Source of the DNA: Candidatus Zixiibacteriota bacterium
GTDB lineage: Bacteria; Zixibacteria; MSB-5A5; GN15; FEB-12
Assembly: GCA_024280215.1 (NCBI GenBank)
Contig: JAJRQO010000014.1
Location: 431 to 64,430, forward strand
DNA: 64,000 nt
Direction: 5' to 3'
Below are positions 36,437 to 38,476 of the stretch, one piece after another. Made by a program: the position numbers and the translations under genes. The notes beneath the pieces are model-generated. The model was not told the DNA's origin. It saw only the letters and a program-made list of their open reading frames with translations, and did no database searches. Position 1 is the first letter of the stretch, and the number at the start of each line of letters is the position of its first letter.

Positions 36437-36444
36437 CACATAAT

Positions 36445-36559
36445 GTCATTCCCAACTTGCTTGGTGCCTGCAGGCACTTGGGAATCTATATAGTAGGGCA
36501 GGTCTTTCCAAGACCTGCCTTTTTTAAGAAAGTCACCCTGAGTGGAGTCGAAGGGACTT
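36445..36559. repeat. Mixed repeat cluster; the GTAG hairpin with T-tract probably acts as terminator
   Basis: GTCATTCCCAA...TTGGGAATC with insert; GTAGGGCAGGTCTTTCCAAGACCTGCC-TTTTTT; GTCACCCTGAGTGGAGTCGAAGGG. Confidence 0.8.
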
Positions 36560-36798
36560 TCTTAAAAGTTATCCACAATCTCAATGGCTATAGATTCCGT
36601 TCAATCTTTTCTGTCTTATTAGGTTACACCGAATTGGGTTTGTTTTGTCAAATTTAAGTTTTTTTGATTGTCTCTTTTCCTCTTGATAAAATTATACGCT
36701 TCTCATAGAATAGGGGAGAGTTTGGAATTACATCGGATGTGTAGGGAATATGTGACTCGCAATCTTATATCTATAAGAACAAGAAAACACCTGTCCGC

Positions 36799-36842
36799 CA
36801 TTGTCGTTCCAGCGAAGGCTGGAATCCAGTCTTAAAAATCAA
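36799..36842. repeat. GTC-tagged TTCCAGC-GAAG-GCTGGAA hairpin repeat
   Basis: GTCGTTCCAGCGAAGGCTGGAATCCAGTC; direct copy at 37572-37631, inverted copy at 37923-37949. Confidence 0.8.
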
Positions 36843-36853
36843 AAGAAACCGTA

Positions 36854-37540
36854 TCAATCTTCAACTGTAACTAACACTCCATTATCAAACAAGTCTTGTT
36901 TTATCATTTCACCACGTTCATTATATGTTGTCCATTTCCCATGTTTTTTACCTTCGTTCATTTTACCTACATCAAACCCATCTATTCTATCAACCCATAA
37001 ATCTAATTCCTTGTTTTCAAAAGGGTAATCGATACGAAGTCTTGTACGATTCTTACCAATACAAAGGAGTAATTTTCCATCCATATAAAAACAACTACTA
37101 TCTAAATTATCACTCATAAATTCTTTGGGTGAATCTTTAAACCACTTACATAACCCATGAAGATTACCTTGTTTGTAATACAGTATAGATTTTTCAGTAT
37201 GGTTTTGATACCATTCAACAGATAATCCATGTTTTTTAGCATTTATAAATTGGCTCTCTTCTGCTTTCATACCATTTTCATACCAACTAATAAATGAATA
37301 CGTCATTGTATTCACATAAGCATATTCCGCAGAGATTTTGTTTTTTCCATTCTTATACCAACTCATATATTGCCCATGTTTTACAAACCCTTTTTCGTTC
37401 CCATAATGATTCGTTCTCATGTATAGTTCTTTTAATGTACTATCTTCATAATATACTGAAACAGTATCATATTTTGTGTCATCCCATCCAAAAGATAAAG
37501 CTGGTAGTAAAGTGATTAAAAGTATTAGTAATGTTTTCAT
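36854..37540 (-). CDS. Exported MORN-variant repeat (YwqK-like) protein
   Basis: Signal peptide; repeats such as KHGQYMSWYKNG, KHGLSVEWYQN, KHGKWTTYNERG. Confidence 0.8.
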   Translation of the reverse strand: MKTLLILLITLLPALSFGWDDTKYDTVSVYYEDSTLKELYMRTNHYGNEKGFVKHGQYMSWYKNGKNKISAEYAYVNTMTYSFISWYENGMKAEESQFINAKKHGLSVEWYQNHTEKSILYYKQGNLHGLCKWFKDSPKEFMSDNLDSSCFYMDGKLLLCIGKNRTRLRIDYPFENKELDLWVDRIDGFDVGKMNEGKKHGKWTTYNERGEMIKQDLFDNGVLVTVED

Positions 37541-37622
37541 GAAATCTCCAATCTATTTATAATTATTTTTGCATTATTATACCTGCGAAGGCTGTGCCTG
37601 CAGGCACGCTGGAATCCAGTCT

Positions 37623-37910
37623 TTAAATCAATCGGTTATATAAATCTTCCCATTCTTTATTATCTTTTTCAATAAGTTTCAACTTCCAATTTCGTTTCCA
37701 CCATTTTAATTGTTTCTCCCTACGAATAGCATCTTCAATACTGTCAGCGGATTCATAGTACACTAACGTATCAATATTATACTTTGATGTAAAGCAACTC
37801 CCAAGTTTGTTTTTGTGTTGGTAGACTCGTTTTATTAAGTCGTTTGTGACGCCGATGTAAAGTGTACCGTTTCGTTTACTTGCAAGTATGTATACATAGT
37901 ATGTTTTCAA
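37623..37910 (-). CDS. Small GIY-YIG nuclease (UPF0213/COG2827-like)
   Basis: YYVYILASKRNGTLYIGVT, R, AIRREKQLK; TTG start at 37910 after AGAAAGGT; the longer ORF start reads through repeats. Confidence 0.92.
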   Translation of the reverse strand: MKTYYVYILASKRNGTLYIGVTNDLIKRVYQHKNKLGSCFTSKYNIDTLVYYESADSIEDAIRREKQLKWWKRNWKLKLIEKDNKEWEDLYNRLI

Positions 37911-38321
37911 AATAAAACCTTTCTGGTTCCCAGCCTTCGCTGGGATGACAAAGGGGACAGGGATGACAAAGGGGGGCGTTGTGAAAAATAATAAAGCGAT
38001 GATAGCGTTAGGGCAAAATTTTCCATGCTTTAACATACAATCTCTGACTGACAGGGAATGTCATACTAATCTCAATTTCCCTACAACATCCCACTAAATC
38101 CAAAAATTTCTCTTTAGATGAATGACCTAAAGAAGAGAGAGAAAATACATGAACAAAAACACTATAAATTATAATATCAAAAATGGCTTTAAGCCATTTT
38201 TAAGGGCAAACCCATTTCCTCCTAACACCCTGCGGGTGATTTTTTATAGCGAAAGTTAGTATGAAAAAGGACGTTTAAAAAACTTTTTATATGAGATGGA
38301 ACCCATTTTGGAAATTAAAAA

Positions 38322-38476
38322 GTCAGGAGGACAGGCCTCCTGACCTACAAGACTTTGTCGGGTTTCTCGATTTAGAAATCTTGCGATTTCAAACCAACTG
38401 AACAGCCTGCAAGCTGAGCAAACCCGACCTAGAAGTTTTGTACAAATTAGGAGGTTCAGGCATGCCTGAACCCTAC
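38322..38476. repeat. Minus-strand GTAG REP cluster including a copy of the RAYT right flank
   Basis: GTCAGGAGG-ACAGG-CCTCCTGAC-CTAC; GTCGGGTTTCTCGATTTAGAAATCTTGCGATTTCAAACCAAC...CCCGACCTAG; GGTTCAGGCATGCCTGAACC-CTAC. Confidence 0.85.

Follow-up and report, generated by a model that had tools for sequence, protein, structure and literature searches.

The Neisseria Transformation Sequence (NTS), CGTCATTCCCGCGMAVGCGGGAATCYRG, and the wider set of Ssn-related motifs (SRM) are hairpin repeats that were described, together with the Ssn nucleases, only in 2025 (Chenal et al. 2025, PMC11893778). According to the text of that report these repeats flank genes for single-domain GIY-YIG proteins of ~94 aa (ssnA, cd10448), and SsnA binds the hairpin as single-stranded DNA (ssDNA) only and cleaves a few nucleotides upstream of it, not within it; the identity of the loop is dispensable, and the loop position tolerates extensions. 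Here we analyse a 64,000-nt stretch of a Candidatus Zixiibacteriota genome (the window, C20:431-64430 of genome G000, an assembly of 3.03 Mb in 42 contigs with 36.6% GC) in which two NTS/SRM-like hairpins each hold a further 14-nt palindrome, GTGCCTGCAGGCAC, nested on the 3′-arm side. The host hairpins resemble NTS/SRM (dRS3 of Neisseria) in their core and asymmetric flanks (TGTCATTCCCGTGAAAACGGGAATCCAG here versus CGTCATTCCCGCGMAVGCGGGAATCYRG), in being multicopy and intergenic, and in adjoining GIY-YIG genes of ~95 aa. The 14-mer itself, in contrast, is not an SRM, and the upstream cleavage reported for SsnA does not make this enzyme an obvious maker of the insertion. The preliminary description of this stretch knew of no named element like the insert, and it missed that the host hairpins belong to a described family. 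The text of PMC11893778 describes no natural inserts within the hairpin, although its supplements could list such variants. Likewise, our literature searches turned up no account of inserts within SRM/NTS repeats and none joining GIY-YIG with repetitive extragenic palindromic (REP) sequences. Small nested palindromic elements would be of a known kind, and their nesting within the recent NTS/SRM-Ssn system would be the new part.

The closest known analogues in behavior are the GC clusters of yeast mitochondria (e.g. GC42) and related palindromic mini-elements of organelles, which, as described in PMC4478555, are likewise short GC-rich hairpins in an AT-rich background with 2-3-nt direct repeats, loop-biased substitutions, and merging and shuffling of units; they are 30-40+ nt long, mitochondrial and located in AT-rich spacers, whereas the insert here is 14 nt long, bacterial and confined to the inside of other hairpin repeats. 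Specific insertion into extragenic palindromic hairpins is also known for insertion sequences (IS) such as IS1397 and ISKpn1, which target the REPs of E. coli and Klebsiella, IS621 and ISPpu9/10 (PMC1525189), but these are 1-1.5 kb long and encode a transposase, and no such element with matching ends is found here. The REPs and REPINs of REP-associated tyrosine transposases (RAYTs) offer a further likeness, being small hairpin replicators that are selected for pairing and thought to move as ssDNA (PMC3333891, PMC3116915); unlike them, the 14-mer has no 5′ GTAG and flanks none of the five RAYT genes of the genome. RAYT biochemistry moreover gives no route to a duplication (PMC3333891), and movement of the RAYT/IS200 type leaves none, unlike what is seen at the 14-mer. 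Nor does the 14-mer resemble the palindrome-associated transposable elements (PATEs) of the IS200/IS605 type, with their fixed target tetranucleotide on the 5′ side and lack of duplication, as its flanks are variable duplicated triplets.

A 14-nt palindrome inserted into hairpin repeats

The palindrome occurs twice in the window without mismatch (36464-36477 and 37594-37607), compared to a mean of 0.04 exact matches in shuffled windows, with two matches attained in 0 of 100 shuffles; the feature is real and non-random. Copy 1 lies in an NTS/SRM-like repeat on the + strand at 36443-36486 (AATGTCATTCCCAA-CTTGC-...-TTGGGAATC), between the stop codon of a 1246-aa oxidoreductase open reading frame and its terminator, and positions 36448-36486 read ...ATTCCCAACTTGC-TTG-GTGCCTGCAGGCAC-TTG-GGAATC.... 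Its left TTG occupies 36461-36463 and its right TTG, with which the 3′ arm TTGGGAAT starts, occupies 36478-36480; the 14-mer between them can form a mini-hairpin, GTGCC-TGCA-GGCAC, which in the predicted fold stacks on the 3′ arm of the repeat and leaves an 8-nt bulge on the 5′ side. Copy 2 is held by a + strand repeat at 37582-37619 (CCTGC-GAAG-GCT[14]GCT-GGAATCCAG; in full ...CCTGCGAAG-GCT-GTGCCTGCAGGCAC-GCT-GGAATCCAG), the minus-strand reading of which begins 3 nt past the stop codon of a GIY-YIG gene, and its flanks are GCT at 37591-37593 and GCT at 37608-37610. The reference for copy 2 is an empty + strand repeat at 36801-36829, TTGTCGTTCCAGC-GAAG-GCTGGAATCCAG, recognized by sequence and fold. 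Both arrangements, TTG-14-mer-TTG at 36461-36480 and GCT-14-mer-GCT at 37591-37610, are as the preliminary description had them.

The genome-wide count proposed there gives four exact copies in G000, all in the same hairpin-repeat family and on the 3′-arm side, together with four copies with one mismatch and none with two. Two of the one-mismatch copies (on C27 and C32) are nested in NTS/SRM-like repeats before the 3′ arm, and the other two precede T-runs and resemble terminators; a single degenerate copy, GTGCCGTAGGCAT, shares its repeat subtype with copy 1. G000 is one of five genomes of the genus (G000-G004), of which G003 is a sister species and an independent assembly. G003 holds three exact and two one-mismatch nested copies, with all exact ones on the 3′-arm side, and the 14-mer is also present in public contigs of four runs (X1-X4) from two studies.

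We deleted the 14-mer together with the right triplet from six G000 copies and searched the result against the genome. For five of the six, the emptied form matches paralogous repeats across the junction. Emptied copy 1, ATTCCCAACTTGCTTGGGAAT, is matched at 96% across the junction by at least 10 empty paralogues, and emptied copy 2, ...GCGAAGGCTGGAATCCAG, is identical at 22/22 bases to the intact window copy at 36812-36833; the corresponding values are 95% over 40 nt for C27, 92% over 36 nt for C8 and 93% over 30 nt for C14, and the emptied C32 copy has no paralogue match in G000. In G003, an empty copy of the same subtype adjoins one filled copy. Removal of the 14-mer and one triplet thus restores the repeats as had been claimed, and, by comparison with empty paralogous repeats, the 14-mer is an insertion.

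The flanking triplets were tallied for the 11 copies with at most one mismatch in G000 and G003. They are identical in 5/11 copies (TTG, GCT, ACC, ATC and ATC), with a genome background of 0.020 for identical triplets at the same spacing, and agree at 2 of 3 positions in another 4/11. Each triplet is the start of its own host's 3′ arm, or the last loop base plus two arm bases, and all 11 copies are on the 3′-arm side relative to the GGAATCCAG tail. The preliminary description had identified the duplicated triplet as the three opening nucleotides of the 3′ arm, immediately ahead of GGAATC, in both window copies, and had tied its reading to such duplications and a hairpin context elsewhere; the placement is correct, and the other nested copies agree in being in hairpin repeats throughout. 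As the triplets vary with the host stem, simple exchange between repeats cannot account for them. Such host-matched 3-nt duplications indicate real insertion events.

Relatives of the 14-mer, found by collecting every CCTGCAGG site and every perfect palindrome of G000, occupy two further host families, namely a second hairpin-repeat family and a RAYT-associated long repeat. The second family consists of GTCACCCTGA followed by GAGCGGAGTCGAAGGGAC (CTGAGC-N3-4-TCGAAG) and holds A-CAGCTTGCAAGCTG-T or A-CACCCTGCAGGGTG-T (16-nt) at one fixed site, with 18 filled versus 111 empty loci in G000 (examples are at C28:74377-74400 and C4:8125-8148, and an empty + strand copy, GTCACCCTGAGTGGAGTCGAAGGGAC, is at 36532-36557 of the window). 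Four placements of its extra 18 nt are equivalent, implying a 3-nt repeat TGA. The RAYT-associated long repeat (GTAGGTCGCGGTTCCG followed by TTGGTTTGAAATCG...) bears CAGCCTGCAGGCTG together with a TTCCG duplication of 5 nt in ~3 of ~14 copies, beside ~ten empty ones; loci are at C42:131974, C25:88762 and 38403-38416 of the window, where the 14-mer is an imperfect TGCA-centred one (CAGCCTGCAAGCTG). The first repeat family contains the GTG...CAC variant alone. The 14-mer is one subfamily of genus-restricted, TGCA-centred 14-nt palindromes (NNN-C-Y-TGCA-R-G-NNN), which are nested only in hairpin repeats, two families of them linked to small GIY-YIG genes and one repeat linked to a RAYT.

Covariation was measured on the 37 second-family inserts of three genomes (12 distinct rows), with the six stem positions left free in the search pattern. 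All three variable stem pairs are changed on both sides and 93% of cells are paired, compared to 24-46% in slid controls, and the covariation score was reached in 0 of 500 shuffles. The stem variants include GCT/AGC, CCC/GGG, GGT/ACC, GCC/GGC, GTC/GAC and ACC/GGT. The four nested one-mismatch variants of the 14-mer have their changes confined to the central TGCA, and the degenerate copy retains a GTGCC...GGCAT stem with a G-T pair. Since the stems covary and the outermost bases vary while the center is conserved, the unit is a 5-bp-stem hairpin constrained for pairing and not a decaying remnant.

Among 108 genomes of the family, second-family inserts are present in G000 (18), G003 (9) and G004 (10), with 0 in G001, G002 and the other 103, and the exact 14-mer occurs in three, G000 (4), G003 (3) and G053 (1, in GC-rich coding sequence and by chance). 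The pattern of the 14-mer followed by N6-7 and ATCC matches 48 stretches across GTDB, two of which are in repeat context on one contig of one metagenome-assembled genome (MAG), and 65 stretches of metagenome contigs, with 0 in repeat context; both wide scans possibly left out records near the window and are not a test of absence.

Host hairpins and GIY-YIG genes

The host repeats have the form (A)ATGTCATTCC-stem-loop-stem-GGAATCCAG or GAACTCCTTTCC-...-GGAATCCAG; GAAA, GAAG and CTTGA are among their loops. G000 contains 68 GGAATCCAG sites, most of them after (A)ATGTCATTCC or GAACTCCTTTCC plus a stem-loop, and 60 host-repeat copies have the canonical 9-11-nt spacing. The ATTCC(C)...(G)GGAAT core and the asymmetric flanks (GTCATTCC ... 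GGAATCYRG) of NTS/SRM are both present. The published degenerate SRM motif has 17 matches in G000, four of them TGTCATTCCCGTGAAAACGGGAATCCAG, versus 7 in the shuffled genome, and three window repeat copies fail the strict published motif. By sequence, the host hairpins are of a known kind, NTS/SRM-like (GTCATTCC-stem-loop-stem-GGAATCCAG). Read on the opposite strand, the repeats with a GAACTCCTTTCC head end in GGAAAGGAGTTC, so that the hairpin precedes a Shine-Dalgarno-like AAGGAG, which may perhaps bear on how genes downstream are expressed.

G000 encodes five small GIY-YIG genes plus one 617-aa open frame matching the GIY-YIG family. An NTS/SRM-like repeat follows 3-17 nt past the stop codon in four of the five small genes (C5:9913-10260, C2:26205-26492, C37:7270-7602 and window 37582-38036), in the CTGGATTCC orientation, which is the association expected of NTS/SRM. 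The fifth (C37:15646-15978) is of a different subfamily and is flanked by the second repeat family (GTCACCCTGAGC...GTCGAAGGGT). In the window, the small GIY-YIG gene is on the minus strand at 37623-38036, with a conserved core of 97 aa (37626-37916; Pfam PF01541, E = 1.6e-15), and the copy-2 repeat sits directly past its stop codon. All 8000 of the 8000 scored candidate homologues of its product have E ≤ 1e-5 and most are ~95 aa; among the 120 homologues listed, identity is 63-76% (the window's own protein aside), and the closest solved structure is UPF0213 BH0048 (E = 3e-5). The protein resembles an Ssn-type nuclease and is a candidate member of the Ssn family of ssDNA nucleases. Upstream of this gene, the stretches at 38118-38320 (~200 bp) and 38356-38403 (~50 bp) are unclassified multicopy elements, for which each of the four congeneric genomes has dozens of matches at 70-94% identity.

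At the other filled repeat, three congeners share the hairpin GGGCAGGTCTTTCCAAGACCTGCC with its T-run (36495-36526), which is the terminator of the 1246-aa oxidoreductase gene, whereas the SRM repeat between stop codon and terminator is not conserved in these three. The window also encodes a RAYT on the minus strand (28967-29446; NCBIfam NF047646, 107.8 bits vs a cut-off of 80), the flanking hairpins of which are of another type (GTAG/CTAC). G000 contains many perfect GC-rich palindromes of 18-28 nt (GGAACAGGCATGCCTGTTCC ×11, GGTTCGGGCATGCCCGAACC ×8, GGCGTTACATGTAACGCC ×9 and GTAGGGGCGTTACATGTAACGCCCCTAC ×3; one at window 38453-38472), which probably represent REP/REPIN families of RAYTs, with GTAG/CTAC ends. 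Downstream of the C42 RAYT (118449-119021) a ~27-nt unit, GGACGTCTGCCTTGCACTTGTTAGAG, is present five times in tandem, and the GCAGACGAGG..TCTGCC hairpin of this unit also adjoins the filled repeat on C14 and its G003 counterpart.

Possible origins of the nested palindrome

Our preferred reading, in which our confidence is evenly balanced, is that the 14-mer, a miniature palindromic hairpin, was inserted into the apexes of NTS/SRM hairpins and then spread with the host repeat. The 14-mer hairpin (5-bp stem GTGCC/GGCAC, loop TGCA) would have entered the repeat apex several independent times, each time landing at the start of the 3′ arm with duplication of 3 host nucleotides. Entry would be transposition-like, with an enzyme acting in trans at a 3-nt staggered break in the frayed single-stranded tip of the extruded hairpin. 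As the published SsnA tolerates loop changes and loop-position extensions, the apex would be permissive, and the filled repeat would remain a working repeat that is copied onward. A further-reaching version, in which the TGCA-centred 14-mers are self-propagating units inserted in trans into hairpin apexes with 3-5-nt duplication and by no known transposase class, is tentative and in our judgement rather doubtful.

Several observations weigh against such entry. A length of 14 bp is below that of any DNA that transposases are known to move. The flanks are unrelated in 2/11 copies (ACG/TTA and CCG/TTT), and the length of the duplication varies by host family (3, 3-4 and 5 nt), which is unusual for one transposase. 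At copy 2, related contigs show GCA...GCT (T37593A; 4, 3, 1 and 4 contigs of X1-X4), and the perfect GCT/GCT of the window may be secondary; these public contigs are from relatives only (word shares ≤0.20), and the interpretation is limited to the parts of the stretch that they cover. G000 and G003 share composite types (host subtype plus neighboring sequence) at otherwise unrelated loci, and the copy-2 composite, with ...GAACTCCTTT ahead of it, is found on several contigs per run. Filled repeats therefore spread as units, and independent insertions probably number only 4-7. A filled and an empty state at one orthologous site were not seen among the relatives, which are either without the repeat or filled: G003 is without the whole repeat at the site of copy 1, and in one X1 contig 17 other letters replace 36437-36487. 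The comparison of filled and empty alleles proposed in the preliminary description, run on the relatives' contigs, accordingly yields no such pair at one locus. Finally, no enzyme of G000 could be matched to the insertion: the published SsnA cleaves upstream of the hairpin, the five RAYTs are flanked by other hairpins plus CTACAA and none by the 14-mer, and the sole DDE (rve) transposase is IS481-like with unrelated ends (TGTATAGTATCA...).

These unrelated ends also rule out the IS481-like element as a parent; it is present as an intact copy (389-aa transposase, C42:122946-124261), a frameshifted copy at 75% identity (C38:104094-105374) and a solo ~68-bp terminal repeat (C38:124816-124883), and PF01609 has 0 matches in G000. 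The 14-mer has the terminal inverted repeats and target duplication of a MITE (miniature inverted-repeat transposable element) or IS, being a perfect palindrome with a perfect 3-nt duplication in 5/11 copies, and no cognate autonomous element with the same ends is found in G000-G004. A search for a larger element ending in GTGCC...GGCAC, which the preliminary description had suggested, was likewise negative in these five genomes. In G000, GGCAC-N3-GGAAT-type ends and every GTGCCTGC site give only the 14-mers and coding-like sites, and paired GTGCC...GGCAC ends with equal triplets at most 6 kb apart amount to three weak chance pairs. The 14 other sites with GTGCCTGCAG in G001-G004 are all coding-like, and an end-pattern search that catches only part of the copies returned 10 other loci, all unrelated. 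The lack of any larger parent element in these searches leaves the excision-footprint reading weak. From the preliminary description's choice of a mobile unit or an excision footprint, insertion with duplication in hairpins is thus retained, and the footprint is disfavored by the missing parent and the covarying stems.

Four other explanations were weighed against the preferred reading. The palindromes might arise and move by replication template switching, slippage and short-tract recombination among the very abundant hairpin repeats, with no mobility of their own and with the flanks being microhomologies, an alternative that we regard as unlikely overall but deserving of real weight. It would account for the chimeric look of the composites, as in related contigs the left flank of the copy-2 type is native to a CCTGC/GCAGG stem and the right flank to a CCAGC/GCTGG stem, and for the variation of the flanking repeats among host families (3, 3-4 or 5 nt). 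The compound hairpins in 47/108 family genomes, with flanking repeats of only 0-2 nt, point the same way, as does the comparable merger and shuffling of yeast mitochondrial GC clusters (PMC4478555). The insert arm CACCCTG also repeats an adjacent host 7-mer in some second-family hosts, but this likeness is missing in other hosts of the same insert, and in most hosts the identical 14-mer has no local template. Moreover, the four distinct perfect triplets each match their own host stem, whereas conversion would import the donor arm.

A remnant left by excision of a hairpin-targeting IS or MITE with GTGCCTGCA... ends and a 3-bp duplication, which would have lost its interior from between two palindromic CTGCAG/TGCA motifs, is in our view improbable. 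Duplications of 3 bp are typical of some DDE families, members of the IS3 family give 3-4-bp duplications, and MAGs often lose multicopy IS elements. REPs are documented targets of the IS3, IS110, IS4, IS256 and IS5 families (PMC1525189), and a self-complementary TGCA at the join would be expected to give an identical remnant each time. Besides the missing parent, however, the commonest sister palindrome, CAGCTTGCAAGCTG, has no CTGCAG site, the variation of the 14-mer is confined to the loop, and in the relatives the terminal bases vary while internal ones are conserved and the two halves covary, which independent ends would not do. In the literature, we found no paper joining nearly precise excision, palindromes and insertion sequence. 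That the 14-mer is a host module kept by selection, such as a protein-binding palindrome or a terminator or mRNA-stabilising extension, is more doubtful again. It is perfect in 7/11 copies across two species with ~76% coding DNA identity, copy 1 follows a stop codon and precedes a terminator, copy 2 occupies the space separating two genes, and free-standing GTGCCTGAAGGCAC hairpins before T-runs resemble terminators. Yet a module of this kind leaves the same 14-mer with host-matched duplications in different repeat subtypes unexplained, its copies are at non-orthologous, unrelated loci, and the loop variation speaks against a sequence-specific double-stranded DNA site. Finally, a sequence that is perfectly palindromic and includes a rare 8-bp restriction site might bring to mind an adapter or linker from sequencing or assembly, the probability of which we consider negligible; the insert keeps to one register of one repeat family, and, because it is found in the independent G003 assembly as well as in contigs of four runs from two studies, it is not an assembly artefact, a concern that the preliminary description had itself raised.

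Some narrower candidates were set aside. An origin from a restriction site (PstI/SbfI) was discounted because the commonest sister palindrome is without the site, and a sigma-54 or operator site was dropped for want of fit. P-nucleotide-like hairpin opening would yield inverted and not direct flanks, and an HUH enzyme carrying 3 nt from an earlier host fits the four imperfect copies but not the five perfect ones.

Compound repeats in related genera and implications

Of the 108 family genomes, 47 contain compound hairpin repeats, in which one arm is joined by a second hairpin or a 5′ half-repeat stands in tandem. Compound SRM repeats with a different second hairpin beside one arm, e.g. TCCGCCGATGGCGG or CCCCGGGCCTGAACCGGGG, are found at loci L201-L230 (genera g20, g42, g44, g57 and others); L214 is triple-nested, and at L229 the first repeat family harbours the second. 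Tandem 5′ half-repeats (TCATTCCCGCCCCCTCTG, ×1-3) placed directly before a full SRM hairpin, as in G114, G108 and G086, are very common among the 47 matched genomes. Compared by eye with canonical copies, the compound repeats of other genera show flanking repeats of 0-2 nt only, and we do not claim the 3-nt duplication rule beyond this genus.

In natural SRM copies, a second hairpin thus occupies exactly the site at which the published enzyme accepts extensions, and the filled repeats are natural variants for testing the substrate rules of Ssn nucleases. If the insert moves on its own, the size limit for mobile DNA would fall to 14 nt, a hairpin-targeting integration activity would be implied, and bacteria would have a counterpart to the mitochondrial GC clusters; the TGCA-centred 14-mers would then be the smallest mobile DNA units yet described, parasitising the repeats of both Ssn and RAYT, a prospect that we can offer only tentatively and think unlikely. 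If the insert is not self-mobile, it would still be a clean case of hairpin repeats growing by nesting.

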